Part shown: positions 6,504 to 58,470 of the stretch, one piece after another
How the letters are laid out: each line of letters begins with the position of its first letter
Position numbering within the stretch: the first letter of the stretch is position 1
From: a virus
Strand: one strand, 5' to 3'
Virus record (IMG/VR): IMGVR_UViG_3300047494_000112
Coordinates: 64,001-128,000 of that record
Length of the DNA: 64,000 nucleotides
The notes under the pieces: model-generated
What the model was told of the DNA's origin: nothing
Databases searched by the model: none
Seen by the model: the letters and a program-made list of their open reading frames with translations, nothing else
Made by a program: the position numbers and the translations under genes

Positions 6504-6601
6504 AAACTCCTTTTTAAAACTAAAATAAAGGTCTAGTTCAAAACCTTTCGCAAAAGTCTATAAAAGATTTTCGCAAACTCTTAAAGTCATTACCTTACTA
6601 G

Positions 6602-15976: not shown

Positions 15977-15999
15977 AGTTTTTAATACCACAAGTCTAA

Positions 16000-28853: not shown

Positions 28854-29405
28854 ATGGCTGGTTGGAAGATACTAGAAGGAGTCAAAGGCGCAGCATTGTT
28901 CCATAACGAAAAAGATGGAATAGAGAGGCGCCGATCTCTTCATAGAGATTGGTCAAAACCCGGTGAAATTATAATGATGCCTCATCAGCCTACGACCTTA
29001 GTTTCTATAGGGATGAATCCATCAATTGCAACAGGTGAAATAGATGATCCTACAATCAGAAAAGAATATACCTGGGCTAGGTCTTATGCCTGTTATCAAC
29101 GATACACAAAATTTAATGTGTGCGATATGATTACAAGCCATCCCCTTGATATGCTTGAATGCTCAAATCCTAGCAGCAAAGGAAATCATAAATTTATTTT
29201 AGATTCTTTAAAAAATATGCAATCTGATATCGTTTTATCTTGGGGTATATTGCCGAAAGGTTTAGAATACTTGGCTGAAGATTTGCTTTCTGCTCTAAGA
29301 AAGGCTGGTCACACACTTTATTGTTGGAGAATTAACAAAAACGGTTCTCCTGGTCATCCTAGATTTATTAACCTTCCTGATCTAAAAATTCAAAGGTATT
29401 TCTAA
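28854..29405 (+). CDS. DUF1643 family protein
   Basis: IGMNPSIATGEIDDPTIRK, VLSWG, GSPGHPRF. Confidence 0.8.
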   Translation: MAGWKILEGVKGAALFHNEKDGIERRRSLHRDWSKPGEIIMMPHQPTTLVSIGMNPSIATGEIDDPTIRKEYTWARSYACYQRYTKFNVCDMITSHPLDMLECSNPSSKGNHKFILDSLKNMQSDIVLSWGILPKGLEYLAEDLLSALRKAGHTLYCWRINKNGSPGHPRFINLPDLKIQRYF

Positions 29406-30922: not shown

Positions 30923-31387
30923 ATGAAAATCATATATCGTACTGGTAGCCTGCTTGATTTCAAAGGCATGTACATTTGTCATTCTTGCAATATAAAGGGT
31001 GGCTTTAAATCTGGAGTAGCTGGTGTCATACGAAAAGAAATGCCTGAGGTACATGAAGCTTACCTTGAGCTGTTTAATAAAGGCGGCATTAAATTAGGAG
31101 AAGTGCAGTGGGTACAAACCAATTCAGGAAAAGAGGTAGGTAACATGTTTTGCCAGCCTGAATATGGCTATGATGGAAAGCGATATGTTTCATACGATGC
31201 AATAGATGATGCCATTAAACAGATAAATGAAGACTGTGCTGATTTCAAGGTTGCTTTTCCTTTGATTGGCGCGGGTCTTGGAGGAGGCGATTGGAACATC
31301 ATTGAGATGATAATTGAAAGGAATGCTAAACACTTTTCTCCTGTTGTTTATACATTAGATGGAGTTATACCTTATGGCAATGAATAG
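30923..31387 (+). CDS. macro domain (ADP-ribose processing) protein
   Basis: HSCNIKGGFKSGVAGVIRK and FPLIGAGLGGGDW. Confidence 0.88.
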   Translation: MKIIYRTGSLLDFKGMYICHSCNIKGGFKSGVAGVIRKEMPEVHEAYLELFNKGGIKLGEVQWVQTNSGKEVGNMFCQPEYGYDGKRYVSYDAIDDAIKQINEDCADFKVAFPLIGAGLGGGDWNIIEMIIERNAKHFSPVVYTLDGVIPYGNE

Positions 31388-31670
31388 GCTACAGTACCTT
31401 TTAGGTAAACTAGCAGAAGAGTGCAATGAGGTAGGACAACGCTGTTCTAAAGCAATGCAATTTGGTTTAGATGAAGTTCAGGAACTTCAACACCTGACAA
31501 ATAAAGAAAGACTAGAGCTAGAATTTAATGATATTCTAGTCATTGCTTTGCTACTGCATGATGAGTTTGGTTTCAATAATCGGAGACTAACCTCAAGCTA
31601 CATTGAAGTAAAGAAAGCAAAAATTGAGAAATACTACCTCTATTCCAAATCACTAGGAATGGTTGAATAA
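31374..31670 (+). CDS. MazG-like nucleotide pyrophosphohydrolase
   Basis: LAEECNEV...ELEFNDIL (ExxE...ExxD). Confidence 0.7.
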   Translation: MAMNRLQYLLGKLAEECNEVGQRCSKAMQFGLDEVQELQHLTNKERLELEFNDILVIALLLHDEFGFNNRRLTSSYIEVKKAKIEKYYLYSKSLGMVE

Positions 31671-31685
31671 TCTAGGATTAGTAAT

Positions 31686-32699
31686 TTGAGACTACCTACA
31701 ACAGATGAGTGGCTTAATAGCAAAACTCTTGAGAAAATTGTGCAAGCTGTACAAGCCACCACAATTATAGCAAAAAAGAAGCATGATTTTCGTGTAAGTT
31801 CATTACCTTACTGTCCTTTGCTTGAATTAGTAGCCAGAAAAGAGCTTGAGCAAACAGAAGAAATGGAATATGACTCTCATTTCTATTTTGCAATCGGTAA
31901 CGCGCTCCATTCGCTCTTTCAGAAATTTTCTAGAGACGCCAAAGGTGTGACCTTAATTGGTGATTGGAAATGCTCAAAGATAATTAGCATCAAACAAGAC
32001 TCTAATCCTCCATCTGAAACAATCACAAAATGTGCTCAAGCTTATCAATTTTGTAGCAATAAATCTGCAAAGAAAAGACATTCTTGTCCGCATAAATTGA
32101 AAGATTGTAAAGGTGACTTTGAATATGTAGAGCTAACTCTTTATTACAATGGTTTATCAGGTCACTGCGATTTACTTTTCAAAGTTGATGGTAAATATTA
32201 TCTAGTAGATATAAAAACTACCTCAACTTTTTTATTCGACTCAACCAAACTGGCATTAGACAAAGGCTATTATCCAGCTAAAAAATATTTTCATCAAATT
32301 GAATCATACGCAGTAATGCTTGAAAAACAATTTGACATTAAAATCGAGCAGTATGCCATTCTATACGTTTCACGAGACAGGACCAGCACAAAAAGAAAAG
32401 GTCATATGCTGTTTGTTCGTAAATTAAATAATAGAATGAGAAGAGAGCGTTGGGAGTTATTAGATAAACAAACAGCCAATAACAAATTGGTTGAAAAATA
32501 CGAAAAATCCCAAAGCAAAAAGTTGCTAACTAAGATATGGGAAAATCGTCCCTGTCAAAAGCCTTCTGACTACAAGAATGAAATGGGCCCCAAATTCTTT
32601 GACAAGGTTTGTACGTTTCACAAGGACAAGACCTGCTATAGCGGCAAAATTATAAAGACAATAGAGAAAATGTATTCAAACAAAACTGCATCTATCTAA
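31686..32699 (+). CDS. Cas4-like PD-(D/E)XK exonuclease
   Basis: RVSSLPYCP, GNALH, GHCDLL, LVDIKT, HQIESY, C-terminal Cys residues. Confidence 0.8.
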   Translation: MRLPTTDEWLNSKTLEKIVQAVQATTIIAKKKHDFRVSSLPYCPLLELVARKELEQTEEMEYDSHFYFAIGNALHSLFQKFSRDAKGVTLIGDWKCSKIISIKQDSNPPSETITKCAQAYQFCSNKSAKKRHSCPHKLKDCKGDFEYVELTLYYNGLSGHCDLLFKVDGKYYLVDIKTTSTFLFDSTKLALDKGYYPAKKYFHQIESYAVMLEKQFDIKIEQYAILYVSRDRTSTKRKGHMLFVRKLNNRMRRERWELLDKQTANNKLVEKYEKSQSKKLLTKIWENRPCQKPSDYKNEMGPKFFDKVCTFHKDKTCYSGKIIKTIEKMYSNKTASI

Positions 32700-32709
32700 G
32701 GAATTAGTC

Positions 32710-33237
32710 ATGATACTTTCAGCTCAATCTATTCGTCGCCTTTGTAAATATGAATATCCTAATAAACTACCTCAGGTGCCCTTGTTGGCACCTTATTCTG
32801 AAAGTGCTGTTAATTCAGGTATGACCTTTGGCCTTTCATCAGCTGGATATGATATTCGTATTGACCAGGATGTTACCTTATATCCTATCACGCTTGGTAA
32901 TCTTATGCTTAAAGCTATTGGTGTTAAACGCTCTTCTTTTGCTTTAGCAAGCTCAATTGAGAAATTTACTATTCCCAAGCATCTTATGCCGTTAGTAATG
33001 GATAAATCAACCTGGGCACGTAGAGGGTTAAGCGTTTTCAACACCTGTGCTGAACCAGGATGGACTGGCTGGCTAACCTTAGAATTAGCTAATAAAAGTG
33101 AGCACGTTTTGGAGATAAGAAAAGGAATGCCTATTGCTCAAATTGTATTCTTTGAGTTAGATCATCCTACTTGTCAACCCTATCAAGGAAAATATCAGCA
33201 TCAAGCTAGAGGTCCTCAACCGGCAATATTAGCATGA
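32710..33237 (+). CDS. dcd: dCTP deaminase
   Basis: GLSSAGYDIR, KSTWARRG, EPGWTGWLTLEL, PIAQIVF, GKYQHQ. Confidence 0.93.
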   Translation: MILSAQSIRRLCKYEYPNKLPQVPLLAPYSESAVNSGMTFGLSSAGYDIRIDQDVTLYPITLGNLMLKAIGVKRSSFALASSIEKFTIPKHLMPLVMDKSTWARRGLSVFNTCAEPGWTGWLTLELANKSEHVLEIRKGMPIAQIVFFELDHPTCQPYQGKYQHQARGPQPAILA

Positions 33238-34601
33238 AGCCTACTTTAACAGTATTAGGCTTACAGAGTAGCTCAAAGCATTTCATTCCGCACCACAAAA
33301 TTGTACCTAGCTTATATCTAGGTAGATCTAGATCTATAGATCTAGAAACTAAGAGCGTAATGCACACCCAAGAAGCCGTCCAAAATATTGACTTTTGGAC
33401 ATTGGATTGTGATGCTTTTTACGTTGAGGACTCTTTAGGGTGGACTAAACCCCTGGATGTATCAGGAAATCATTTTGACTATTTCAGTGAGTTTCCAAAG
33501 ATATACAGAGTTGCTCATTCACTCTTTGAAGAAGATAATTTTCTAACAAACGGTTGGACCAAGAACAAACAACACGTTTTAGAGATATACAACAACTTAC
33601 TAATTGCCGATCTAATTTGGGTTAGTCCTGTTCTAGTTGAGATATTGCGTAGAACAATGCCTCAGGTATTGTCAAAGCAACAGATACAGCGAATAGAGAA
33701 AAAGTTTGTTGTTCTACCTCCCCCTGACTACTACAAGTTGGATACTATCTCATCTACTGTAGTTCAGCCTTCACGTAGCTTTAAAAAGGGTTTGGTCTTT
33801 CTTTGGAACCACCGCTTAATATCTCTCAAAAATCCAAAAATGTTCTTTGAGGCCATTGAGACATTTCACAAACAGCATAGCAAGGTTCCGATTGAGATTC
33901 GTATCTGTGCATCAGGCACTGAAAAAGAGGCTAGAGCATTTGTTCCTGAGTCTTTGCAAAAAACTGTAGTATATTCACCTTTTATATCTGATCCAAAAGA
34001 GTACTCAAAATTTATTGAAACAGCCAACATTACTATCGGTACCTCACGAATAGAGTCATTTGGTATCTCCGTATTTGATTGTATTCGTCAAGGCATGACC
34101 TATATTAACACTACACCTAACGAAGCCTTTTCAACAATTGCTGGATCACTAACTACAGTTAATCCTAAAGATGTGCCCGATATAATTTGGAAGTTATATT
34201 CTGATCCTAAAAAACGAGCAGACTGGGACAAAAAGAACATACAAGCATTAAACAGTTTACCTAATTTTGATAAAGCAAAGACAATTTTCAGTAACCGTGT
34301 TGATGAAATTGTACATGGTAAAATACAATCAGCAAAGGGCGACAGGTCAGAGAAGCTAAAAACAGCACTAAAAGTGTTAAGCAAAAAAGCTTTGAGCAAG
34401 CAAGACTTGTATCGTACCTTTGGTTGGGAACCAATGACTACATGCCGCAATGCGTTTTGGGGCGGCTATTATTTCTCTTTGAGAAAAAATGGCATTGATA
34501 CAAAGTTGATAAGTAATAAGCTATATTTTTACTCTGATAAGGCTCACCTAAAGAGTATAAATGAAACAAAGATACAAGCGCCGAAAGGATTATTCAAATG
34601 A
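33234..34601 (+). CDS. GT-B (GT4-like) glycosyltransferase
   Basis: FLWNHRL...KNPKMF, SRIESFGISVFDC (ExFG motif). Confidence 0.75.
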   Translation: MKPTLTVLGLQSSSKHFIPHHKIVPSLYLGRSRSIDLETKSVMHTQEAVQNIDFWTLDCDAFYVEDSLGWTKPLDVSGNHFDYFSEFPKIYRVAHSLFEEDNFLTNGWTKNKQHVLEIYNNLLIADLIWVSPVLVEILRRTMPQVLSKQQIQRIEKKFVVLPPPDYYKLDTISSTVVQPSRSFKKGLVFLWNHRLISLKNPKMFFEAIETFHKQHSKVPIEIRICASGTEKEARAFVPESLQKTVVYSPFISDPKEYSKFIETANITIGTSRIESFGISVFDCIRQGMTYINTTPNEAFSTIAGSLTTVNPKDVPDIIWKLYSDPKKRADWDKKNIQALNSLPNFDKAKTIFSNRVDEIVHGKIQSAKGDRSEKLKTALKVLSKKALSKQDLYRTFGWEPMTTCRNAFWGGYYFSLRKNGIDTKLISNKLYFYSDKAHLKSINETKIQAPKGLFK

Positions 34602-35158
34602 CTCATCCGTTCTTCTTGCTATATGATGGCGAGACACGCAAGAAAGCATTAGCTGAATTGCCTGCCATGATTAACAAGGCTAGAGTAATTTTAGATGGCC
34701 ACCCTTTTGTTAATGCTGGATTATACATAGGCCATAGCGGAGGAAAAGACTCTGTTGCAGTCACTTATCTAACTAGGTTAGTTTTTGGTATTTTGCCTAT
34801 TCTTCATTCGGCTAAACCTAAAGGTGAAAATGCCGTTCATCCTGAAGCACAAAAGCTTATATACGCAATGGGTGAACATCGTCCTGTGTTATTGCATCCT
34901 AGAGACGTTGTGCCTCCTCCAGAATATGCTACTCAGATTGATGGCACAAAAATGTGTGAGTTTGATAGGACTGATGGCAGGCATACAGATGTAATGATTG
35001 ATGGAGAGTTAAAAAGCCGAGCCGAAATGACTTGTTATGTTAAAAATGGTCTGTTTGGCAAGAATTTCATTTTTCCAATTTTTGATTGGCAAGATTATCA
35101 CGTTTGGGCTTTGATCTACAAAGAAAACTTGGCCTTTTCCGGAGAGTATTTAGAATGA
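34598..35158 (+). CDS. PAPS-reductase-like adenine nucleotide alpha-hydrolase (PP-loop)
   Basis: GHSGGKDS PP-loop; FPIFDWQDYHVWALI. Confidence 0.8.
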   Translation: MTHPFFLLYDGETRKKALAELPAMINKARVILDGHPFVNAGLYIGHSGGKDSVAVTYLTRLVFGILPILHSAKPKGENAVHPEAQKLIYAMGEHRPVLLHPRDVVPPPEYATQIDGTKMCEFDRTDGRHTDVMIDGELKSRAEMTCYVKNGLFGKNFIFPIFDWQDYHVWALIYKENLAFSGEYLE

Positions 35159-35820
35159 AAAACGTTTTAATTATTGCACCCCACATTGATGATGAAATGA
35201 TAGGTTGCTGGTCTGTATTTAATAATCCTGAAAATAACGTTAGCATTGTCTGGCTGTACGAATTAACTGAAGCTAGAATGCTAGAAGGAATGAGCTTGAT
35301 CGGTAAAGCTAAATCCACCTTAGATAAATTGGGTACAGGTGAAGCTGTAGCCTTTAAGCATATTGAAAAATATGTATATGATGAGATATATGTTCCTTCA
35401 AGAAAAGACTCTCATTTAGACCACAAGAAAGCAAACTCTTTATTCAGAAAATATGCTACCCATTTCTATTCAGTAGACATGGTTGATGGAAAATACTTAG
35501 GTGAGAAAGTTTCTGGCCAAAAATGGCGTGCATTGGAGGACTGTTATCCAAGTCAAAAGTCTTTATGGGACACAAACGCAAAATACTATCTGTTTGAGTC
35601 TATAACAATGTGTGATTACGATACCTATGAGACCTTTGAACACTGGGACTACTCTATCACAGTACCTGCTGAGTATTGTTCAGAGTGTCTTGAAGCGATA
35701 AAGTCTAAAAGACGAGGTGAATACAATTCACGAGAGATTATGGATAAACTGCTACAAATTTGCCCAACAGGTAAAGTTACGGTTCAATACAACGAGTTAA
35801 CTCTAGTGGCAGAAGGCTAG
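35155..35820 (+). CDS. PIG-L/LmbE family N-deacetylase
   Basis: IIAPHIDDEMIGC and HLDH motifs. Confidence 0.85.
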   Translation: MKNVLIIAPHIDDEMIGCWSVFNNPENNVSIVWLYELTEARMLEGMSLIGKAKSTLDKLGTGEAVAFKHIEKYVYDEIYVPSRKDSHLDHKKANSLFRKYATHFYSVDMVDGKYLGEKVSGQKWRALEDCYPSQKSLWDTNAKYYLFESITMCDYDTYETFEHWDYSITVPAEYCSECLEAIKSKRRGEYNSREIMDKLLQICPTGKVTVQYNELTLVAEG

Positions 35821-35822
35821 TC

Positions 35823-36254
35823 ATGAAATACGGAATTGAGGTCGAAGGTAGACTACGTGGTGTCAAAACTTTGTTTATGGATGCAAATGAACCTGTGCAA
35901 AAAGTACTTGATTTTTTGTATAGTGATGAAGGTAGAGGCATAGGTCATATTTATATCTGTGATCATGAGAACACTTTGAATTACAGGCAGGTCGCCTATC
36001 TTTTCAAGGGTTTTCACGTAACATTAGAAGTAAGCAAAGTAGAAGGCCCTGAGTTAAGATTAGGTACAGAAAATCTATCAATCATGTTTAGAATTGACCT
36101 TTGTCCGACAAAAGCAATTTACAAAAGTATCAGTTTACTCAGCAGTCTTTTTGACCAAGTTAAGATTGAAAAAGATAAAAAAGTGTATGTCTTTCCCTTT
36201 AGTAGTGTTATTACAACTTTACCTAATGAGTTTGAAGGTGATGTTGAGATATGA
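35823..36254 (+). CDS. hypothetical protein, probable paralog of 39856-40353
   Basis: GIEVEG...GVKTLF...GHIY versus GEEVG...GTQTLF...DHIF. Confidence 0.6.
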   Translation: MKYGIEVEGRLRGVKTLFMDANEPVQKVLDFLYSDEGRGIGHIYICDHENTLNYRQVAYLFKGFHVTLEVSKVEGPELRLGTENLSIMFRIDLCPTKAIYKSISLLSSLFDQVKIEKDKKVYVFPFSSVITTLPNEFEGDVEI

Positions 36255-37366
36255 CCAAAATTTATCTGGTACCTATAGAACCTTTGACTGAACGTTATTC
36301 CGAGTCTTGGTATAGAAATATTCCCGTTGCATTTGAAAATGCTGGTTTTGAGGTAGTTGTAATTGACGGTCATCCATTGTTGAATGACGATATCAAGGTG
36401 GGCACTTTTTTAGATATTTCTAGCACTTGTCACTACAAGGCTAGCCAACTACAAAAAATTGCCAAAATGTTTCATCATGGTGCGATTGATAAAGACTCTG
36501 TTTTCTTTTTCTCGGATATTGAATTTTGGGGAATTGAACAGGTCAGACTATTATCTGACATGAACAAGGTACCGGTGTTTTTAACAGGTTTCTTGCACGC
36601 AGGTTCCTATACTAGAGGGGATGCTTTTGAAATTGCAGCACCATATCAACAATTTACAGAGGTTGGCTGGGTAGCAGCATTAGACATGGTTTTTGTTGGC
36701 TCTGAATATCACAAGCAAGCTTTTTGGGCAAGGCGTCTGAAACCTTTAGGCTTTAATAACGAGTTAATACATAAAATCCATGTTACCAAAAATCCAATGT
36801 TTAAGAGTGATTATACCTTTAAAGGCCTCCCAAAAGAAAAAAGAATGCTGCTAACGAATAGGTTTGATCAAGAGAAAAATTGTGACCTAACAATAGCACT
36901 GTTTGCCAAACTGGCCAAAGAATATCCTGATTGGAAGTTTATTGTCACTACTTCACGAAAGACATTCCGTACAAACTATCCAGAAAAAGACATGGTAAAT
37001 ATCAATCAGTTGATTGAGGAGTCAGGGATAGAGCTAAAAATAGGACTAACAAAAGAGAAATACCATGAAGAGTTAGAGAAAGCAGCAATTGTTGTCTCTC
37101 ACTCACCAGAAGAAAATTATGGCATTTGTGTAGCAGAGAGCGTAATTTACGGCTGTATGCCATTGCTATCAAAATGCGCCTCACATCCATCGTTTGTTGA
37201 TAACGATAATAGGTTAATGTTTTACCTAAATGTACCTGGAGATGATTATGCACAAGCAATACGTTTGATGCACGCTTTTGAGGCTGGCGAGAAATCAACT
37301 CTTAAATTGGATTGGAATGGCATGTCTAACATTATTCAATACATTAACGTCCTGCAAAGGAAATAG
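36251..37366 (+). CDS. GT-B glycosyltransferase
   Basis: NRFDQEKN, EENYGICVAESVIYGCMP (GT4-like ExxG...E motif). Confidence 0.8.
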   Translation: MTKIYLVPIEPLTERYSESWYRNIPVAFENAGFEVVVIDGHPLLNDDIKVGTFLDISSTCHYKASQLQKIAKMFHHGAIDKDSVFFFSDIEFWGIEQVRLLSDMNKVPVFLTGFLHAGSYTRGDAFEIAAPYQQFTEVGWVAALDMVFVGSEYHKQAFWARRLKPLGFNNELIHKIHVTKNPMFKSDYTFKGLPKEKRMLLTNRFDQEKNCDLTIALFAKLAKEYPDWKFIVTTSRKTFRTNYPEKDMVNINQLIEESGIELKIGLTKEKYHEELEKAAIVVSHSPEENYGICVAESVIYGCMPLLSKCASHPSFVDNDNRLMFYLNVPGDDYAQAIRLMHAFEAGEKSTLKLDWNGMSNIIQYINVLQRK

Positions 37367-37368
37367 TA

Positions 37369-37734
37369 ATGAAAACTAGCATTTTTGTAAAGTTTCAGAA
37401 AGAGGGAATACACTGTTATCCAGCTGCGCCAGAAGGCGTGGAATTTCTCAAACATCCTCATCGACACATGTTTCACTTTGAGGTGGAAATTCAGGTTTTC
37501 CACCACGATAGAGATATTGAATTTATTCTTCTTAAACGTGAATTGGAAGCTTTGTATGATGAAAAAGTGCTAGAATTAAACCATCAATCTTGTGAAATGA
37601 TGGCTAGCTCTCTATATGATTATTTAATTGGCAAGTATTCAAAACGCGATATAAAAATTACGGTGTCAGAGGATGGTGAGAATGGCGCAATACTAACCGT
37701 GCCATACGTTGAGAATGAATTTGTAGCTAATTGA
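37369..37734 (+). CDS. QueD-like (6-pyruvoyl-tetrahydropterin synthase, T-fold) protein
   Basis: EGIHCYP...HPHRHMFH...DRDIEFI...SCEMMA...VSEDGENGA. Confidence 0.7.
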   Translation: MKTSIFVKFQKEGIHCYPAAPEGVEFLKHPHRHMFHFEVEIQVFHHDRDIEFILLKRELEALYDEKVLELNHQSCEMMASSLYDYLIGKYSKRDIKITVSEDGENGAILTVPYVENEFVAN

Positions 37735-37738
37735 GGAT

Positions 37739-38308
37739 ATGCTTGTGAATAAAGAAGATATACTACCGGAAGTGACAGCATTAATTGCCAAAATGTATCC
37801 AAGTTATTTGGAAGATCCAAATTTGGCAGAGACGCCTGCTAGAATTGCAAAAATGTATTGTGAGGAATTGTTTGCTGGTTCATTTACTGAACCTCCTAAG
37901 CTAACAGTTTTTCCAAATACAAAAAAGTACAATCAGCTTATAATTGTTCCTGATATAAATTTCTCTAGTGTCTGTTCTCACCATTGGCTTTCATTCATGG
38001 GATTTGCAACAATTGGAATTTTATTGAATGAAGATTCTAGTTTTTTGGGACTATCTAAATATGCTCGTTTAGTAGATTGGTTTGCTAGACGTCCTCAGGT
38101 ACAAGAAAATCTAACTGAGGAAATTGCTGATTATATTAATGAGACCTTAAAGCCTGCTGCTTTAGGTGTGTACATCTCTGCAAATCATTTATGTGCAGTT
38201 GTTAGAGGTATAAAACAGCCAACCTCTACAATGATTACTACTGCTCTGCGTGGTGAAATGTTAACCAGCCCGTATCTTAAATCTGAATTTTTGGCTAGAT
38301 GTAAATGA
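37739..38308 (+). CDS. folE: GTP cyclohydrolase I
   Basis: ETPARIAKM, SVCSHHWL, GLSKYARLV, RRPQVQENLT, HLCAVVRG. Confidence 0.95.
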   Translation: MLVNKEDILPEVTALIAKMYPSYLEDPNLAETPARIAKMYCEELFAGSFTEPPKLTVFPNTKKYNQLIIVPDINFSSVCSHHWLSFMGFATIGILLNEDSSFLGLSKYARLVDWFARRPQVQENLTEEIADYINETLKPAALGVYISANHLCAVVRGIKQPTSTMITTALRGEMLTSPYLKSEFLARCK

Positions 38309-38309
38309 T

Positions 38310-39848
38310 ATGATTAAAGATTTAGTTCAATATATTCCAGCAGCACTCTTTAATCCTGCTCATTCAGGAACCGGAGTTTATATAAAGTATCACGCTCTAA
38401 GAAATGAACCACCTAAACTCTTAAAGTACAAAACTGAATACACTCACTTGGATACTCCCGATAGAGAGTTGTTACTTGTCAACGACAACAATCGACTCGG
38501 AAATACCAGACCTTTGGATGAAGGATTTGATGAATTTGTTTCTTTTTCTCCTATGCATCTGAGTTCAAAAGATTCAGGCATGAAGTGGGGAATGATGAAT
38601 TACCTTCAAAATCTCAATCCCAAGTATAATCACCATTTCATGGATGCTTATAAAGATATTCCTGATCGTGTGAAGATTATTTCTGACTCTGGTGGGTTTC
38701 AACTTTCTAGAGGCAGCGTTTCTTTTATTAATCCTGAAAAATTGGCTATATGGTACAGTACCACCTGTGACGTAGGCATGACTTTGGATGTTCCTTTAGG
38801 TCGAGAAGGTAGCAGCAAATACTTGAAAGAGTCTGGAAAGATACAAAAGAAAAACAATGAAAAAATGCTGGAAACTTTTTCAAAGCTAAATAGTCCTACA
38901 AAGCTCATGAACGTTTTGCATGGATTAAATGAATCAGAGTATGAGCTGTATCACAAAATTGTGTATGAGCCGACTGTGGATAAACTTGCAATTGGTGGTG
39001 TCTATCACTCTTCATTAGTTACATCCACCAAGCTGATCTATAATTTAATGTTTGAGTCTGATATAGGCAAGCACTACAATCACGTCCATATCTTAGGCGT
39101 ATTTAATAACAAAATATTGCCAATCTATTATTGGATTTTCAAATTAGCAAATGAGAAGCGCAAGAAACCAATTCTACTAACTTCTGATTCTTCTACTGCA
39201 ATCCAACAAGCAGTAGCCAAAACATATTTTATGGCTCACAATTACGACGAGCCTTATCAGTTTCAAAAATTAGGTACAACGTTTCAGACAGGACATCTTC
39301 CATCGAGAGTAATTTCATCACCTTTTAGAACATTAAACTGTTGCTGTCCTGTTTGTGCAGCCCTGAAATATACTGACCTATTTACTTTCTGCACAGGTCA
39401 AGCCATAAACTCAGCATTAACGTACCATAACAATTGGCAGTTTAGTCGCTATACCAATTTCATGAATGAAATGCTGCAAAAGCTTGATTTTGAACAGTAT
39501 CGAGATTTGGTTGCAAGACAAATTGGAAAGAGAGCTTCTAGAGACACTTTGGATGCTCTTGATTTTGTTAATCATGCACATAAACATGGTTTGAAGTCAG
39601 CACATAGTAGGTTTCATCACTATTTTAGAAATCTGTTTTCTTTTTCAAAAGAATTAGCTGAAGAAAAAACCATTAAGAAAAAAAGAGACGAATTTTTGGT
39701 GACTGTGTTTGACAAGTATAACAAATATCATAAAACAGGAAAGGCTCCTGAAACCGTTAAAATTATGCTTGACAAAAAAGTAGGTAATCTGGCTCAAAAG
39801 TCAACTTCCTCTAATAAAAAAGCGAAAAAAATCTCAATTAAAAAGTAA
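38310..39848 (+). CDS. guanine transglycosylase, TGT/DpdA family
   Basis: SDSGGFQL, GMTLDVP, VLHG, LAIGG, HILG, SDSST, Zn site NCCCPVC...YHN. Confidence 0.88.
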   Translation: MIKDLVQYIPAALFNPAHSGTGVYIKYHALRNEPPKLLKYKTEYTHLDTPDRELLLVNDNNRLGNTRPLDEGFDEFVSFSPMHLSSKDSGMKWGMMNYLQNLNPKYNHHFMDAYKDIPDRVKIISDSGGFQLSRGSVSFINPEKLAIWYSTTCDVGMTLDVPLGREGSSKYLKESGKIQKKNNEKMLETFSKLNSPTKLMNVLHGLNESEYELYHKIVYEPTVDKLAIGGVYHSSLVTSTKLIYNLMFESDIGKHYNHVHILGVFNNKILPIYYWIFKLANEKRKKPILLTSDSSTAIQQAVAKTYFMAHNYDEPYQFQKLGTTFQTGHLPSRVISSPFRTLNCCCPVCAALKYTDLFTFCTGQAINSALTYHNNWQFSRYTNFMNEMLQKLDFEQYRDLVARQIGKRASRDTLDALDFVNHAHKHGLKSAHSRFHHYFRNLFSFSKELAEEKTIKKKRDEFLVTVFDKYNKYHKTGKAPETVKIMLDKKVGNLAQKSTSSNKKAKKISIKK

Positions 39849-39855
39849 GGAATTT

Positions 39856-40353
39856 GTGATGAAAAAAATGTATGTAGGTGAAGAAGTAGGTAACACTCCA
39901 ATGTATGGAACACAAACTTTGTTTGTAGTAGGCTTGCAAGATTATGTTAGTGTTATTTCTGCTGCCGAAGCAAATGAATGTGATCATATCTTTTTAGGAG
40001 CAAATTTTAGCTTTAATCCAGAGGATGATCAAGATGAATTTAATGATTGGGAAGAGTTGATCTTTAATCTGTTGGATAGTCCTTTTGGCTACCATGTAAC
40101 TTTGGATATAGAAATTCCCAAATATAGCGTTTTTATCAAAGATATGGTCAAGAAATTTCCTGACAATTTTTATCCTTTGCTGTCCGTTAGATTGCCTAAT
40201 ATACTAGAATACGGTCCAAATGCGACTATAAAAATTGATGACATTGGATTCAACAAGACTAATCCAGGTATCTGGTGTTTTCCTTTGGATGATAGCTTAA
40301 AGGATTGGGGGTTTTTCAACACTTGGGATGAAATGATAAATAACACGGTTTAA
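39856..40353 (+). CDS. hypothetical protein closing the 7-deazaguanine cluster
   Basis: ORF track; shares motifs with 35823-36254. Confidence 0.65.
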   Translation: MMKKMYVGEEVGNTPMYGTQTLFVVGLQDYVSVISAAEANECDHIFLGANFSFNPEDDQDEFNDWEELIFNLLDSPFGYHVTLDIEIPKYSVFIKDMVKKFPDNFYPLLSVRLPNILEYGPNATIKIDDIGFNKTNPGIWCFPLDDSLKDWGFFNTWDEMINNTV

Positions 40354-40423
40354 TACGTGGTTCGGAATATATAATTTTACTTACGGACTAATTTTCATAA
40401 GGACTATTATATATGGAGCGCAC

Positions 40424-40969
40424 ATGGTTGATAACGTTACCGCTCACATTCTTAATGTTTTAGCAGCAAAAAAGAAAACTTCACAAACAATTGTTGACCC
40501 TAGAAGAGTAGCAATTGCTTTACCCAATTCTAGAGTGCCTAAAGCTGATTCAGTTGTGAGCTTCAAATACCTATTAATGAATAGCATTAAGTATCAGCCA
40601 GATGAAGCTAACTCTGAACATGTTACGCTCCGTTCTTTGGCTAAAAAGAATTTCAAGAATGGGTCCATTGGAGCTGTAGGTTCAACTTTGACGGACTTGC
40701 CTCAATATCGTCAAAAGCACAAATGGGATCAGACTCTTCGCTGCACACCAGCAAGCTATCGTGGTAAAATAATTGACTGCCCTTCAATTGTATTCAACTG
40801 TTCATGCCCTCGGTTCACGTTTGTCTGGAATTGGGTTCTCTGGGCCAAGTCAGCATCAGTTTTAAATGCTACAAACGAGCCGCCTGACATTACTAATCCT
40901 CGCAAGCTAATTGGGGGATGCAAGCACGCGATTATTTTTCTTCAAGCAATCAAAAAACGCGGTATGTAA
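40424..40969 (+). CDS. SWIM zinc-finger protein
   Basis: FNCSCPRF...GCKHAI (CxC...CxH). Confidence 0.65.
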   Translation: MVDNVTAHILNVLAAKKKTSQTIVDPRRVAIALPNSRVPKADSVVSFKYLLMNSIKYQPDEANSEHVTLRSLAKKNFKNGSIGAVGSTLTDLPQYRQKHKWDQTLRCTPASYRGKIIDCPSIVFNCSCPRFTFVWNWVLWAKSASVLNATNEPPDITNPRKLIGGCKHAIIFLQAIKKRGM

Positions 40970-41042
40970 ATTCATCTGGCTAGAAATCTAGTTTCAGAAT
41001 AATTAGCAGTCAAGCTGCTTTATTAAAAGGACTAAAAACAAA

Positions 41043-42905
41043 ATGCGCTACTCTGAAGCAATGTCATCTGCTACCTCAAATTCACTCAAATTTGGTCCGC
41101 AGCGAAAAACACCAGATACAATAGACATTGATTTAGAACGCAATAATTTAATCACTGGACATGGCATGGAGACATTCAACACGTCCTATCTCTTACCAGG
41201 TGAAAATCCACAAACTCTATATGCTAGAGTTTGTGCTTGGATGGGGAGCAATTCAGAACATGCTCAGCGTTTGTATGACTATTTAAGTAAGCATTGGTTC
41301 TCACCAGCTACACCAATTCTATCTAATGCTGGTACTAAACGTGGCCAGACCATTTCATGCTATCTAACTGAAGTTCAAGATAGTATGCGCTCAATTATTG
41401 ACAAGTGGCAGGAACAAGCTTGGTTAGCTTCTCAGGGTGGAGGTTTAGGTGTCTCTTGGAGACAAGTTCGTTCTCGTTCTGAAAAAGTTGGACAAGTAGG
41501 TTCAACTAGCGGTGTTGTCCCTTTTCTAAAGGTTTGTGAGTCTTTGACGCTTGCAATTTCACAAGGTTCTTTACGCCGTGGAAATGCTGCAATGTATCTG
41601 CCTATTTGGCATCCAGAGATAATTGAATTTCTTAATATTCGTAATCCTGTAGGAGGGGATCCCAAACGTAAAACGTTAGAACTGCATCACGGTATTACAA
41701 TTGATGATGAGTTCATGAAGGCTGTCGAGACAAATTCAACATATAATCTACGTTCACCAAAAGATGGATCAATTATAGATATAGTCAAGGCTCGCGAGGT
41801 TTGGATTCGTATTCTAACTACTAGAGTTGAAACTGGCGAACCATACATTATTTTTATAGATAATGTTAACAAAGCTGTTCCTGAGCATCATCAAGCTTTA
41901 GGCTTGTTTCCAACAAGCTCGAATTTATGCAGCGAGATTTTACTTCCTATAGGACCAGATTATAACAAAAAAGATCGAACCGCTGTTTGTTGTCTGTCTT
42001 CTCTAAATTTAGAGTATTGGGACGAGTGGAAAGACAACGAGCAATTTATTCCGGATATTATGGAGTTTCTTGACAACATATTAATCGAGTATTGCGATAC
42101 TGCTATTCCGGAAATGCAACATGCAGTTTATTCTGCAAGACAAGAGCGTAGTGTAGGTTTAGGAGTAATGGGCTTTCATTCTTTATTGCAAAAGAAAAAT
42201 TTGCCTTGGGAATCAGCTCTCTCTAAATCTCTAAACATGAAAGTATTCAAACATCTAAAGTTGGAAACTGATAGATCTTCAAAGCTATTAGCTGAGCTTC
42301 GTGGTCCATGTCCTGATGCTGTTGAATACACCTGCAGAACAGGTAAAGAATATAACGAACGCTTTTCTTACAAAATGGCAATTGCTCCTACAGCAAGCAT
42401 TTCAATTTTAACTGGTCAGTCCTCGCCAGGAATTGAACCTAATGCTGCAAACATTTTTAAATTTGTTATCAAAGCAGGAACACTAATTGCAAAGAACAAA
42501 TATTTATCTGAGTTGTTGGACAAATACGGTATGAATACTTCTGAAGTTTGGGAAGATATATCTCAAAACAAGGGTAGTGTCCGTCATCTGGAATTTCTCA
42601 CCCCATACGAAAAAGATATTTTTAAGACGGCTACAGAAATTGACCAACGTTGGCTAGTTGAGTTTGCCGCTGATAGAACTCCATTTGTAGATCAAGGACA
42701 AAGCTTAAATTTGTTTCTACCCGCCGATATCAACAAAAAAGATTTGCATAACATTCACATGATGGCTTGGAAAAAAGGAGTAAAAAGCTTATATTATGTA
42801 AGAAGTTCCAGTGTTCAACAAGCTCAAACATTGGATAGAGTGTTAAAAGCAAGCAAAGCAGAAACTCCTTCGTTCAATTCGGACGAATGCTTGGCTTGTC
42901 AGTAG
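41043..42905 (+). CDS. nrdA: class I ribonucleotide reductase alpha subunit
   Basis: SPATP, ISCY, SNLCSE, AIAPTAS, DQGQSLN, KSLYY, C-terminal ECLACQ. Confidence 0.96.
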   Translation: MRYSEAMSSATSNSLKFGPQRKTPDTIDIDLERNNLITGHGMETFNTSYLLPGENPQTLYARVCAWMGSNSEHAQRLYDYLSKHWFSPATPILSNAGTKRGQTISCYLTEVQDSMRSIIDKWQEQAWLASQGGGLGVSWRQVRSRSEKVGQVGSTSGVVPFLKVCESLTLAISQGSLRRGNAAMYLPIWHPEIIEFLNIRNPVGGDPKRKTLELHHGITIDDEFMKAVETNSTYNLRSPKDGSIIDIVKAREVWIRILTTRVETGEPYIIFIDNVNKAVPEHHQALGLFPTSSNLCSEILLPIGPDYNKKDRTAVCCLSSLNLEYWDEWKDNEQFIPDIMEFLDNILIEYCDTAIPEMQHAVYSARQERSVGLGVMGFHSLLQKKNLPWESALSKSLNMKVFKHLKLETDRSSKLLAELRGPCPDAVEYTCRTGKEYNERFSYKMAIAPTASISILTGQSSPGIEPNAANIFKFVIKAGTLIAKNKYLSELLDKYGMNTSEVWEDISQNKGSVRHLEFLTPYEKDIFKTATEIDQRWLVEFAADRTPFVDQGQSLNLFLPADINKKDLHNIHMMAWKKGVKSLYYVRSSSVQQAQTLDRVLKASKAETPSFNSDECLACQ

Positions 42906-44466: not shown

Positions 44467-46413
44467 ATGACCGGTGAAATTGATATCTTTGAAGAGATTA
44501 AACTCTCAAACAGCTTTCATGACGCAGAAAAAATGTCAATGCGTGATTATCTAGATCTATGCAAAGTAGATAGCTCTGCTTATGCTTCAGCTCCAGAGCG
44601 CATGTTAAAAGCAATTGGAAAACCCATTAAGCTGGACACGTCAAAGGACGAACGTCTTTCCCGAATTTTCTATAACCGTACTATCAAAGTCTATCCAGCT
44701 TTTGCTGACTTCTATGGTATTGAAGAGGCAATTGAATCTATTGTAAACTTTTTTACTCATGCTGCACAAGGTTTGGAAGAGCGTAAACAAATTTTGTACC
44801 TACTTGGCCCAGTTGGCTCCTCCAAGAGCTCTTTGGCTGAGCGTCTAAAACACTTGATGGAAAATCAGCCAATCTATGTCTTGGCAACCAAAGATCATGG
44901 CATGTCTCCTATTTTTGAATCGCCTTTAAGCTTGTTCATTAAAGACGAACAGATTGAAAAAATTGAAAAGAACTACAACATTCCTCGTTCCTATATGCCA
45001 GGAATAATGTCGCCTTGGGCTGTCAAGCGTTTGACAGAGTTTAAAGGAGATATTTCTCAGTTTGTTGTTCACAAAATTTACCCAAGCAAGCTGCAACAAA
45101 TCTGTGTTGCAAAAATTGAGCCAGGTGATGACAACAATATGGATATTGGCTCGATGGTCGGCAAGGTTGACCTTCGTATGCTTGAGAAATTTCCGCAAAA
45201 TGACACCGATGCTTATAGCTATTCAGGTTCCATGAATAGAGCCACTCAAGGCGTAATGGAATTTGTTGAAATGTTTAAAGCCCCGATAAAAATGCTGCAT
45301 CCGTTGCTAACTGCAACGCAAGAACGTAACTATATGGGTACTGAGAATATTGGTGCTATACCGTTTGACGGCATCATTTTGGCTCACTCAAACGAGTCTG
45401 AATGGGCAACTTTTAAGCATAACAAAAATAACGAAGCTTTTATTGATCGTGTTTACACAATCAAAGTGCCTTATTGCTTGCGAGTATCTGAAGAAGTCAA
45501 AATTTACGAAAAGCTTATCCGACATTCCAATCTACAAAACAACCCTCTAGCTCCGCATACATTGGAAATGTTGGCGCGCATGTCGGTTCTATCTCGCTTG
45601 CATGAGCATGAGAACAGCAACTATTTCAGTAAGATGCGTGTGTATGATGGTGAGTTCATTAAAGAGACTGATCCTCACGCTAAAACAGTTCAAGAGTATC
45701 GTGATGCAGCAGGTCAAGATGAAGGCATGACCGGCATCTCTACTCGGTTTGCGTTCAAAGTTCTTTCGGCCACATATAACTACGACTCTGAAGAAATCTC
45801 TGCTGACCCTGTTCATTTGATGCTTCAAATTGAGAAAGCAATCAAGAAAGAGCAGTATCACAAGGATTTGGAAAACAAATATATTTCTTTCTTGCAAGAA
45901 ACATTGGCGGCAAAGTATCTTCAATTTATTGGTGATGAAATTCAGAAAGCTTATCTGGAGTCATACAAAGACTATGGCCAAAATATGTTTGAACGCTATA
46001 TTGATTTAGCTGACAACTGGCTTGAAGATAAAGATTACAAAGATCCTGATACAGGTCAGCTAATGAATCGAGAGCTGATCGATAAAGAACTATCAAAAAT
46101 GGAAAAACCTGCAGGTATTGGTAATCCTAAAGATTTCCGAAATGAGGTTGTCAAGTTTGCTTTGCGAGCTGCAAAGAATACTGGCAAGACTCCTGCTTGG
46201 GATTCTTATGAAAAGATAAGAGACGTAATTGAAAAGCGCATGTTTTCAAACGTTGAAGATTTGCTTCCTATTATCAGCTTTGGCACAAAGAAAGACGCTG
46301 AGACTGACAAAAAACATAATGACTTTTTGGCTCGTATGAAAGAGCGTGGCTATACGGAACGTCAGGTTCGTCGTACTGTTGAATGGTACGTGCGAGCTAA
46401 AGGATCCATGTGA
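44467..46413 (+). CDS. prkA: PrkA/YeaG family AAA+ ATPase/serine kinase
   Basis: LYLLGPVGSSKSS, PGDDNNMDIG, EFVEMFKAPIKMLHPLLTATQE, HSNESEW, NNEAFIDR, GMTGISTRF. Confidence 0.96.
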   Translation: MTGEIDIFEEIKLSNSFHDAEKMSMRDYLDLCKVDSSAYASAPERMLKAIGKPIKLDTSKDERLSRIFYNRTIKVYPAFADFYGIEEAIESIVNFFTHAAQGLEERKQILYLLGPVGSSKSSLAERLKHLMENQPIYVLATKDHGMSPIFESPLSLFIKDEQIEKIEKNYNIPRSYMPGIMSPWAVKRLTEFKGDISQFVVHKIYPSKLQQICVAKIEPGDDNNMDIGSMVGKVDLRMLEKFPQNDTDAYSYSGSMNRATQGVMEFVEMFKAPIKMLHPLLTATQERNYMGTENIGAIPFDGIILAHSNESEWATFKHNKNNEAFIDRVYTIKVPYCLRVSEEVKIYEKLIRHSNLQNNPLAPHTLEMLARMSVLSRLHEHENSNYFSKMRVYDGEFIKETDPHAKTVQEYRDAAGQDEGMTGISTRFAFKVLSATYNYDSEEISADPVHLMLQIEKAIKKEQYHKDLENKYISFLQETLAAKYLQFIGDEIQKAYLESYKDYGQNMFERYIDLADNWLEDKDYKDPDTGQLMNRELIDKELSKMEKPAGIGNPKDFRNEVVKFALRAAKNTGKTPAWDSYEKIRDVIEKRMFSNVEDLLPIISFGTKKDAETDKKHNDFLARMKERGYTERQVRRTVEWYVRAKGSM

Positions 46414-46432
46414 GATAAACTGGTCTTATTTT

Positions 46433-46459
46433 GGTGGTGGGTTAGATATTCCCACCACC
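46433..46459 (+). terminator. 9-bp hairpin after prkA
   Basis: GGTGGTGGG-TTAGATATT-CCCACCACC. Confidence 0.5.
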
Positions 46460-46473
46460 TAAAGAGAGTAACT

Positions 46474-47187
46474 TTGAAATTTGAAGTCAGCTTATGCTAT
46501 TTTGAAAAAGATGGTTTAACAGTTAAACAGATAATAGAGTTCAATGATTGTGAAGACAAAAATGTTATTGCTCAATTAACTTGGATATTAAACCATGTCT
46601 CTCAGACTGGCATAAAATATGCTGCAAAAGGTGTTACGGTTTACAATTTTGATGGTTCTTTAGGGCTTCAAATTTTTACTTGGAGTTTAGATACAAAGTG
46701 CGTTCCTGATGATTATGATTTTTCAAAAGCTCACAAGTTAAAATATTGGTTGTTTGTAAACGATAGTCTATCAAGACTAGATACTTCCGTGTTAATAGAG
46801 TTTTCAAAAGACTTTTATCTTCACAAATTACGATATAGGTAAAAAATGTTCCACGTTACTGTCTTAATAAAGTCTATTCTCAAATATAATTTTCCTAAAG
46901 TCGATAAAGACTTAAATTTAGAAGAGTTGGAAAAAGCTTTTAACAGCATTTTGAAGGCTTTTTCTGATGCTTTTCCAAAGCAGATAAGCGTGACAGGGTC
47001 AGGTTATTCCAATAGACCTTTCGATGTCTACGAATCGAAAGGTCCAATAACTTTACAATACTTTACAATGCTTGAAAAAGCAATTTTCTATGTTTGGGAA
47101 GATAAAGAAAAAACAAAGCTAATTCTGGAAGTTATAGCTGATAAAGACGGTAATTTACGAGGCCTCAATAAATTACGTTTTGGATAG
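46474..47187 (+). other. two orphan ORFs between prkA and yeaH (46474-46842, 46846-47187)
   Basis: ORF track; no motifs recognised. Confidence 0.55.
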
Positions 47188-47257
47188 ATTGAGATAAAAA
47201 TAGAATCTTAGTTTAGGTAAGCTTTTTCCCTTTCACTTGCCTATTCAAGGATTCTAT

Positions 47258-47319
47258 AGAGGGCAAACAAACTAGTAATTGCGGATCAGCCGGCCGCGGT
47301 GAAGTTTTGTTTGCCCTCT
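47258..47319 (+). promoter_or_regulatory. long hairpin upstream of yeaH
   Basis: AGAGGGCAAACAAA pairs with TTTGTTTGCCCTCT (14 bp), with an inner GCGG/CCGC stem; TGGTAAA follows at 47326. Confidence 0.55.
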
Positions 47320-47368
47320 GCTATTTGGTAAATTATAGTGTAACTTTCTAACAAGGGATTGAGTTATC

Positions 47369-48619: not shown

Positions 48620-48644
48620 TCTAATATTGTGAAAGAGAAATGGC

Positions 48645-57873: not shown

Positions 57874-58470
57874 ATGGACAAAATGACTACTCATCTAATC
57901 GAACAAGTCTTCACAAGAAGAATAGCCATTGCTCATAGACTGATTTCAGATCCTTTGTCACCTTGCTATAGCATTCACGGACACAATGTCTATATCAAAT
58001 GGCACGCAGCCTATCATGCTACAATGTCTTTTACGTTGGATTTTGAAGCTAATATGCTAGCACCTTTTGCAAAGGTAAAAGGAACCATTCATAAATGGAT
58101 GGATAATTATTTAGACCATTCTTTATTCATATCGAATAAAGATAGTCACTTGCCTTTGTATTTAGAAGACAAGATGAAGATGGCAGTATTTCACGGCGAT
58201 CCTACAATGGAAATGGTGGCGGCTTCTCTGTATGCCAAAATCAATGCCTTTTTGTCTGATAGCTTTGAGTTGAAACTCTACTGTCCAATGGTTGAGATAG
58301 AAGAAACTCCAACAAACACAGTAATTGTACGCAGCTCTTTCAATTTACCTAAGAGTTGTCAGCATTGGTGGAATCGAGCTGACATGACAACAAACGATAA
58401 TCTTGCGGTCGCAATTGCAATCAATAATGCAGAGCAAGTTGTAGCAGATGCAGCAGCCCACAGACCATAA
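57874..58470 (+). CDS. queD: QueD 6-carboxy-tetrahydropterin synthase
   Basis: AHRL...CYSIHGHN, LDH, PTMEMV, EETPTN. Confidence 0.82.
   Translation: MDKMTTHLIEQVFTRRIAIAHRLISDPLSPCYSIHGHNVYIKWHAAYHATMSFTLDFEANMLAPFAKVKGTIHKWMDNYLDHSLFISNKDSHLPLYLEDKMKMAVFHGDPTMEMVAASLYAKINAFLSDSFELKLYCPMVEIEETPTNTVIVRSSFNLPKSCQHWWNRADMTTNDNLAVAIAINNAEQVVADAAAHRP

Follow-up and report, generated by a model that had tools for sequence, protein, structure and literature searches.

A DpdL-type 7-deazaguanine gene run with a putative sugar module in a large phage contig

The window analyzed here is a 64,000-nucleotide stretch comprising bases 64001–128000 of one 187,324-bp IMG/VR virus contig (IMGVR_UViG_3300047494_000112; 38.6% G+C). 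At positions 32710–40353 it holds a single run of ten plus-strand open reading frames (ORFs), in which genes for 7-deazaguanine synthesis and insertion stand among genes for two glycosyltransferases, a putative deacetylase and an ATP pyrophosphatase. The question raised by this locus is what base such a set of enzymes would make, and in which nucleic acid. The reading put forward here, which we rate at an even chance, is that the run forms an operon for DNA modification with 7-deazaguanine, of the DpdL type and with a sugar module built into it, whose products would transfer N-acetylglucosamine (GlcNAc) to a deazaguanine in DNA, deacetylate it and derivatize it. The identities of the genes, their catalytic motifs, the folds of two of the proteins and the linkage of the genes across phages are matters of observation and are set out first.

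The gene run and its deazaguanine enzymes

The ORFs of the run are listed below by window position, followed by other genes that bear on the pathway.

32710..33237, plus strand: dcd, dCTP deaminase/dUTPase family (PF22769, E 3e-19; phrog_1663, E 4e-49)
33234..34601, plus strand: GT1, GT4-like glycosyltransferase, 455 amino acids (PF00534, 29.7 bits against a cut-off of 26.4)
34598..35158, plus strand: minimal PP-loop ATP pyrophosphatase of the PAPS-reductase/CysD type, 186 amino acids (PF01507; SGGKDS)
35155..35820, plus strand: PIG-L/LmbE-like putative de-N-acetylase, 221 amino acids (metal-site motifs; PF02585 below threshold)
35823..36254, plus strand: orfA, unnamed family, a partial barrel, possibly QueE-like, without Fe-S cysteines (AF2 model and structural matches)
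36251..37366, plus strand: GT2, conserved phage GT4 glycosyltransferase, 371 amino acids (PF00534, 32.5 bits; EX7E)
37369..37734, plus strand: DpdL, a QueD paralogue (LxxxHRHxF signature; homology to phiST DpdL)
37739..38308, plus strand: FolE, GTP cyclohydrolase I (PF01227, E 5e-47; NCBIfam FolE models, E 3e-47)
38310..39848, plus strand: DpdA-like long guanine transglycosylase, 512 amino acids, with a Lys-rich C-terminal tail (fold from AF2 and Foldseek)
39856..40353, plus strand: orfB, a divergent orfA paralogue (hhalign against the orfA family profile)
40424..40969, plus strand: orf181, no assigned family (kept after the long transglycosylase in distant relatives)
57874..58470, plus strand: canonical QueD/PTPS, CPH4 synthase (PF01242, E 3e-15, above the cut-off)
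Contig position 167937–168782, outside the window: QueE (35% identity to the QueE of Acidovorax phage ACP17, E 7e-47)

A preliminary description of this DNA, made without database searches, had reported a run of ten genes here, mostly with overlapping or near-abutting start and stop codons. All ten are present at the coordinates given, on the plus strand, and the nine junctions from dcd to orfB measure -4, -4, -4, +2, -4, +2, +4, +1, and +7 nucleotides. Its family calls for dcd, GT1, GT2, the PP-loop protein and FolE are borne out by Pfam matches, both glycosyltransferases scoring above the PF00534 cut-off. The PIG-L-like gene starts at the ATG at 35155, which overlaps the PP-loop stop codon (ATGA), and not at the TTG at 35086. 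Promoter and terminator scans of 31000–41500 returned no more sites than shuffled sequence. By megablast, the run had no match among the phage records, and nothing near-identical was found in the phage collection. At the level of gene order, the contig has a backbone (primase, PD-(D/E)XK nuclease, transglycosylase, sigma factor, RecA/UvsX) in common with myoviruses of ~200 kb, among them Vibrio phage GR7B and Pseudomonas putida phage Lauda.

The run encodes FolE, the enzyme that opens deazaguanine synthesis, and the step it lacks is supplied by the QueD gene farther along the window. The gene that had been called QueD-like is dpdL: its product carries LKHPHRHMF at residue 27, which fits the LxxxHRHxF signature of DpdL as opposed to the CxxxHGH of QueD, has no PTPS match in Pfam, and is 37% identical to the DpdL of Cellulophaga phage phiST (E 3e-19) and 50% identical to that of ACP17. 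Its matches in phage records include ACP17, PA5oct, BCSR5, and X1. The LxxxHRHxF signature separates DpdL, a proposed 7-carboxy-7-deazaguanine (CDG) decarboxylase, from QueD, and the combination of FolE, QueD, QueE, and DpdL without QueC has been linked to 2'-deoxy-7-deazaguanosine (dDG) (Cui, Hutinet et al., NAR 2023, PMC10516641). Judged by its sequence, the DpdL encoded here is likewise proposed to decarboxylate CDG. A search of the whole contig for QueC (Pfam PF06508) gave no match at E<=1; the contig is estimated to be 81% complete, so that the absence is not absolute. The FolE/QueD/QueE/QueC pathway of the preliminary description therefore has to be redrawn with QueC removed, the run's QueD-like gene as dpdL, and QueD and QueE elsewhere in the contig. 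Its broader assignment of the run to a 7-deazaguanine pathway with a DpdA-like transglycosylase stands, given FolE, DpdL, QueD, QueE, and the fold of the transglycosylase.

That enzyme scores 23.3 bits against PF01702 (cut-off 26.3). Its alignment-based AF2 model (pLDDT 86.7) matches tRNA guanine transglycosylases (TGTs), the archaeosine TGT (ArcTGT) and the bacterial DpdA structure 7ui4 with a Foldseek probability of 1.0, none standing out as closest, and also matches phage DpdAs in BFVD. Across 44 homologues, D126, S127, G128, G129, D160, H204, G205, and D293 are invariant and F130, C344, C346, C349, and H373 nearly so, the Zn site (CxCxxC...H) being at least 90% conserved. The active-site residues D126, F130, D160, H204, and D293 correspond, by motif spacing and not by superposition, to Asp95, Phe99, Asp130, His181, and Asp256 of Salmonella DpdA. 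An HG pair in place of the QG of tRNA TGTs had been noted as a DpdA-like trait, and it is indeed the invariant H204-G205 of this family, with the histidine in the position of DpdA His181. In hhalign comparisons the enzyme matches the DpdA of ACP17 (95%) and, more distantly, the enzyme of Xanthomonas phage X1 (90%). Membership in the DpdA3 subfamily, the phiST type, was considered and rejected, as the hhalign probability is 4% and the only match is structural (E 3e-4). By sequence, the transglycosylase belongs to a long (440–570 amino acids) DpdA-like clade of large phages that is distinct from DpdA3. A phmmer search of PDB sequences gave only spurious spike-protein matches (E>0.01), and a search for related loci with the single transglycosylase sequence found none.

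The sugar genes and their linkage to dpdL

GT2 carries an EX7E motif (E288 to E296), which is invariant in 52 homologues together with R204 and K209. Its family comprises more than 250 clusters at >=43% identity and is viral among its ESM Atlas feature neighbors, and its closest solved relatives in a PDB profile search are generic GT4 enzymes. GT1 has no significant similarity to GT2 and no match in 50,697 phage records. Its homologues lie inside the same module in the related loci designated L008 (77%), L028 (37%), and L116 (37%), and it is a rarer accessory gene of the module. An identity of GT2 with QTMAN/GTDC1 was rejected, since the QTMAN_N domain (PF12038) is unmatched at E<=10 in the contig and occurs in 0 of the 120 GT2 homologues listed; a bacterial QTMAN cluster stands at rank 29 of the GT2 feature neighbors in the ESM Atlas.

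The PP-loop protein has SGGKDS at residue 47, which is invariant in its family, and PF01507 covers its C-terminal part only (23.0 bits against a cut-off of 22.5). PAPS reductase proper (CysH) has a C-terminal catalytic Cys motif, and this identity was discarded because the protein ends in ...FSGEYLE, with no C-terminal Cys. The PIG-L-like protein has PHIDDE at residue 9 and HLDH at residue 87, and D85, H87, and H90 are invariant in a four-member alignment in which the X1 row lacks the N-terminus. Following MshB, we take the (A/P)HxDD and HxxH motifs to be the Zn ligands. The earlier call of a PIG-L deacetylase is thus upheld in its metal-site motifs and not in its Pfam score, which stays below threshold; PDB profile matches have E of about 0.6. 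For the PIG-L-like, PP-loop, orfA, and GT2 families alike, PDB profile searches gave weak or generic matches only. No sulfotransferase was found in the contig, so the sulfation once suggested for this locus has no direct support here, although sister phages carry a sulfotransferase in the same genomic slot.

The two genes first described as orphans have relatives. The product of orfA belongs to an unnamed family in which at least 315 sequence clusters were counted, and orfB is a divergent member of the same family (hhalign probability 77%, E 2e-5, 116 columns, full orfB length), a relation that surfaced with profiles only, as BLASTP between the two is not significant. The AF2 model of orfA (pLDDT 96.9) is a partial beta/alpha barrel. 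Its top structural matches in the PDB are QueE enzymes, with Z-scores of 7.2 (6nhl), 7.0 (5tgs), and 6.2, within the background range (Z about 7), and its top structural match in the ESM Atlas is a QueE cluster with a TM-score of 0.61, also within the background range. An ESM Atlas search for orfA itself, whose stored model is poor, gave no usable match, and the deep orfA alignment offered no conserved stretch with which related loci could be sought. An N-terminal EGxxxGxxxxF motif is common to orfA and the phage's own QueE, and the orfA sequence profile is not significant against that QueE. For orfA and orfB, the 4Fe-4S Cys motif expected of a radical-SAM QueE was looked for and not found: 116 members of the orfA family have no conserved Cys, while the phage's own QueE has CNLKCSFC. 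In every locus examined with both genes, orfA adjoins GT2; a complex prediction for the two proteins scored 0.00, which bears neither way on binding. orfB is 32% identical to a 132-amino-acid ORF between folE and dpdA in ACP17, and is absent from the 80%-identical relative L008. From sequence and models, these remote paralogues without a cluster may be QueE-like and may bind the deazapurine.

The distribution of these genes ties them to dpdL. GT2 homologues occur in six of the phage records (BCSR5, X1, BUDD, two ACP17 records, and Phosso), each time no more than 4 kb away from dpdL. For IMG/VR, the 80 top-ranking DpdL loci were compared: 47 have a GT2-type gene within 8 kb, and such a gene is found with 15 of the 16 long transglycosylases and with none of six DpdA3 genes. 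QueC was found at none of the 80 loci. The PP-loop family is present in BCSR5, X1, and BUDD only among the phage records and in ten IMG/VR loci, and in all nine of the latter that are not truncated the PP-loop gene is followed by the PIG-L-like gene, orfA, and GT2. This block is contiguous in Burkholderia phage BCSR5, Xanthomonas phage X1, and L025–L028, and is rearranged in L029. A pattern-limited scan of 185,579 bacterial and archaeal genomes yielded no confirmed member of the PP-loop family. The preliminary description had staked its reading on the glycosyltransferase genes keeping company with dpdA in relatives, and in all relatives examined those genes, and the deacetylase and PP-loop genes too, are found together with dpdL and the transglycosylase. 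Given the proximity of GT2 to dpdL, its pairing with the long transglycosylase, the conserved block, the tight packing of the genes for translation, and the fact that the contig's only two GT4 genes, GT1 and GT2, both lie in the run, the sugar genes are part of the pathway and not passengers.

In L112 and L113 the PIG-L-like gene and GT2 are paired without the PP-loop gene. The module is therefore layered, with a core of DpdL, GT2, and the long transglycosylase, a frequent layer of the PIG-L-like gene and orfA, and an optional layer of the PP-loop gene, GT1, and a sulfotransferase or AAA_28 NTPase. The AAA_28-type NTPase, of ~280–300 amino acids, travels with the module in several lineages (L020, BCSR5 15537–16463; L113:9751–10587; L117 and L118 around 5985–6770); the module here lacks it. 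It may stand in for the PP-loop step or act as a kinase.

The slot between dcd and folE

Sister phages with the same flanks, whose transglycosylases are 39–80% identical, were compared at this site. The left flank consists of DUF1643, PD-(D/E)XK, and dcd, and the right flank of folE, the transglycosylase, orf181, and nrdA. The contents of the slot between them vary as follows.

Slot in L008: the same cassette as in the window, with a GIY-YIG insert
Slot in L007 and in a 25.6-kb ENA contig: ATP-grasp and two QueC paralogues (L007:7111–9425)
Slot in L009: DUF7448, QueC, ATP-grasp, QueC (L009:6368–8856)
Slot in L005/L006: carbohydrate-type sulfotransferase, an unknown gene, and a long QueC of 349 amino acids (L005:6486–9341)
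Slot in L112: PIG-L-like, GT2, sulfotransferase, an unknown gene, DpdL

Beside these other cassettes dcd is kept, at 37–63% identity in L005, L007, and L009 and 48% in L112. Since its neighbors there are unrelated, dcd is a backbone gene at the left edge of the slot and not part of the cassette. The slot contents of L007, L009, and L005 may encode further undescribed deazaguanine derivatives. The insert in L008 is a LEM-3-like GIY-YIG homing-endonuclease gene (L008:2917–3594) between the PIG-L-like gene and orfA, and is absent from the window.

On the right flank, orf181 has no Pfam match. Its homologues come right after the TGT gene in L008, L005/L006, L112, GR7B, and Lauda, overlapping the end of that gene in the last two phages, and in L009 the homologue lies ~3 kb downstream. 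In L005/L006 and L112 it is split by an intein with a LAGLIDADG endonuclease (L005:11623–13638; L112:12403–15122), and intein insertion usually marks an important protein. orf181 is possibly a partner of the long transglycosylase.

Several neighboring genes were also recorded. Upstream of the run lie DUF1643, a macro-domain protein, and the PD-(D/E)XK nuclease (28854–29405, 30923–31387, and 31686–32699); relatives keep DUF1643 and the nuclease as part of the backbone. After nrdA comes a triad of PrkA, DUF444 (YeaH), and SpoVR, found at 44467–50192 in the window, at L006:10773–15556, and in the 25.6-kb ENA contig. It is a bacterial stress/sporulation module kept in this phage lineage, with PrkA (window 44467–46413) confirmed by Pfam. 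GR7B (L018, 95039–103109) and Lauda (L019, 156779–165854), cultured ~200-kb phages with a long transglycosylase 29–30% identical to the present one, have two QueC paralogues among several unknown genes, in a cluster far from the transglycosylase to which GR7B adds a lysine 2,3-aminomutase-like radical-SAM gene. The cluster hints at another deazaguanine derivative.

Proposed pathway, alternatives, and meaning

In the proposed pathway, FolE, QueD, and QueE would make CDG, and DpdL would process it, by the literature proposal through decarboxylation to 7-deazaguanine. The long DpdA-like transglycosylase would insert the deazapurine into phage DNA in exchange for guanine. As a retaining GT4 enzyme, GT2 would then put an N-acetylhexosamine, probably GlcNAc from host UDP-GlcNAc, on the deazapurine, most likely after insertion of the base into DNA. 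The PIG-L/LmbE-like enzyme would strip the acetyl group and expose an amine, the PP-loop ATPase would prepare for the joining of a further group by adenylating a carboxylate or carbonyl, and GT1 would add a second sugar. orfA and orfB may serve to present the substrate, binding its 2-amino-4-oxo ring. The likely purpose would be to shield phage DNA from host nucleases. The steps of the sugar chemistry and the site of attachment are what we infer from sequence and analogy, and DNA is the presumed target because the deazaguanine gene set is that of phages with modified DNA. A hint as to the chemistry of decoration comes from L112, where a carbohydrate-type sulfotransferase stands beside the PIG-L-like gene and GT2 in the same slot.

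The order of steps is modeled on mycothiol (MshA/MshB/MshC), bacillithiol (BshA/BshB/BshC), and glycosylphosphatidylinositol (GPI; PIG-A/PIG-L), in which a GT4 GlcNAc transferase acts first, an LmbE/PIG-L deacetylase then frees the amine, and an ATP-dependent step takes place on that amine. The likeness to MshA/MshB seen in the preliminary description is a fair analogy. However, the acceptors in those pathways are inositol, malate, or phosphatidylinositol, the ATP enzyme here is a PP-loop protein and not an aminoacyl-tRNA-synthetase-like ligase, and the sequence relation is at the family level only.

Among phage systems, the DpdL/DpdA3 system of phiST (PMC10516641) is alike in having FolE, QueD, QueE, and DpdL with the same LxxxHRHxF signature and no QueC. 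It differs in that its 259-amino-acid DpdA3 is unrelated at the profile level to the enzyme here, and in having no glycosyltransferase, PIG-L-like, PP-loop, or orfA gene. The dpdA-GT-dpdL-queE cluster of ACP17 includes a long DpdA homologue; between dpdA and dpdL stands a homologue of GT2, and upstream of dpdA one of orfB. It lacks the PP-loop gene, the PIG-L-like gene, and GT1. Its glycosyltransferase is not mentioned in PMC10516641, where 'glycosyl' occurs 0 times. The cultured phages BCSR5, X1, and BUDD carry the PP-loop, PIG-L-like, orfA, and GT2 block at 30–53% identity, next to a transglycosylase, DpdL, QueE, and FolE. In contrast to the present run, neither the BCSR5 nor the X1 locus has a match to GT1 or orfB, and the X1 transglycosylase is only the distant relative described above. 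Papers on Xanthomonas phages X1 and PhiXhv make no mention of deazaguanine DNA modification. Bacterial DpdA, the DNA preQ0 insertase (7ui4; PMC10164549), compared with the enzyme of the run, agrees with it in the TIM-barrel TGT fold, in three Asp residues for catalysis or recognition, in a stacking Phe, and in His for Gln. On the other hand, identity is about 12%, no DpdB/DpdC partners are found here, there is no preQ0 route because no QueC was found, and the phage enzyme is extended by a beta region at the N-terminus and by a long, helical, Lys-rich stretch at the C-terminus.

Several points weigh against a sugar-bearing deazaguanine in DNA. The nucleoside is predicted from genes alone. 7-Deazaguanine has no hydroxyl, leaving a GT4 enzyme, usually an O-glycosyltransferase, without an obvious acceptor, so that the linkage would have to be at N2, O6, or C7/C8, or through the CDG carboxyl, or else DpdL is not a decarboxylase. 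Expression of dpdL and dpdA from phiST or ACP17 in E. coli gave no dDG; the decarboxylase role of DpdL is itself a proposal, and its authors suggest that further enzymes may be needed (PMC10516641). Sequence alone cannot separate a DNA from a tRNA target of the transglycosylase. Among the sugar enzymes, GT1 has no strict EX7E, PF02585 reaches 21.3 bits (cut-off 28.2) over the N-terminal 30 residues of the PIG-L-like protein only, and the best solved relative of the PP-loop protein, CysD (1zun, E 1e-4), fits sulfate activation as well as ligation. The likeness of orfA to QueE is at background level and unseen by the sequence profile.

The DNA might instead contain plain dDG, with the sugar module serving a free deazapurine, a protein, or a component of the host envelope; in the first case the product would be a nucleoside-like small molecule comparable to the GlcNAc-bearing pyrrolopyrimidine natural products. 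The DNA of phiST is fully dDG and is made with DpdL and no glycosyltransferase (PMC10516641), and the missing hydroxyl and the generic GT4 relatives of GT2 point the same way, GT4 enzymes acting mostly in envelope and small-molecule pathways. Yet an envelope or host-directed role would not predict the exclusive linkage to dpdL seen for GT2 in the phage records, nor its pairing with nearly all of the long transglycosylases; the family is viral among its Atlas neighbors, and the PP-loop gene was not found in the pattern-limited scan of cellular genomes. We consider this account unlikely. A rather slimmer chance is given to a role of the sugar enzymes in base biosynthesis only, in which the enzymes make a glycosylated or adenylated intermediate that is resolved by the time the base has been inserted, leaving no sugar on it. 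The sugar enzymes could then be the 'other unknown enzymes' that DpdL needs, in keeping with the failed production of dDG by ACP17 dpdL and dpdA (PMC10516641), the position of the ACP17 glycosyltransferase between those two genes, and the possible resemblance of orfA to the biosynthetic enzyme QueE. However, loci with DpdL and DpdA3 do without the glycosyltransferase although phiST fills its DNA with dDG, and a deacetylase, a second glycosyltransferase, and a sulfotransferase in sister phages look like decoration and not a transient handle.

The target might also be phage or host tRNA, carrying a glycosylated queuosine-like wobble base. Eukaryotic tRNA has glycosylated queuosines, the transglycosylase fold is equally close to tRNA TGTs and DpdA, and a bacterial QTMAN cluster is found among the feature neighbors of GT2. 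The QTMAN_N domain was nevertheless not found, and His204 replaces the Gln of tRNA TGTs as it does in DpdA, which leaves a tRNA target very unlikely. Least probable, at the edge of what deserves mention, is that the glycosyltransferases decorate a dcd-derived pyrimidine. The preliminary description had raised a sugar on a cytosine- or uracil-derived base in view of the leading dcd, which overlaps GT1 by 4 nucleotides. With dcd assigned to the backbone and no ThyA-type hydroxymethylase found in the contig, that proposal loses its support, and in other lineages the glycosyltransferase block occurs without dcd.

To our knowledge, the known sugar modifications of phage DNA are all on pyrimidines, and the known deazaguanine modifications are all small groups; literature searches found no published description of a glycosylated deazaguanine in DNA. 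Newly described here are the PP-loop/PIG-L-like/orfA/GT2 block, the orfA/orfB family with its putative likeness to QueE, the clade of long DpdA enzymes, and the cassette-exchange site. The fullest form of the proposal is that the locus makes the first sugar-bearing purine known in any DNA, a deacetylated, PP-loop-derivatized, GT1-extended amino sugar built on 7-deazaguanine in a mycothiol-like order, and that it sits at a dcd/folE-dpdA cassette hotspot with at least four deazaguanine chemistries in one lineage; this combined claim is offered tentatively, at somewhat less than an even chance. The sugar module may explain the lack of product from ACP17 DpdL and DpdA in E. coli, and cultured phages form a natural series in which BCSR5, X1, and BUDD have the full block, ACP17 and Phosso the glycosyltransferase only, and phiST no glycosyltransferase. 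If true, deazapurines carrying a sugar would make up a new class of DNA base, bearing on which restriction, CRISPR, and glycosylase defenses see such DNA and providing new enzymes for purine labeling in DNA. In the family itself, one modification cassette takes the place of another at a fixed site in the genome.

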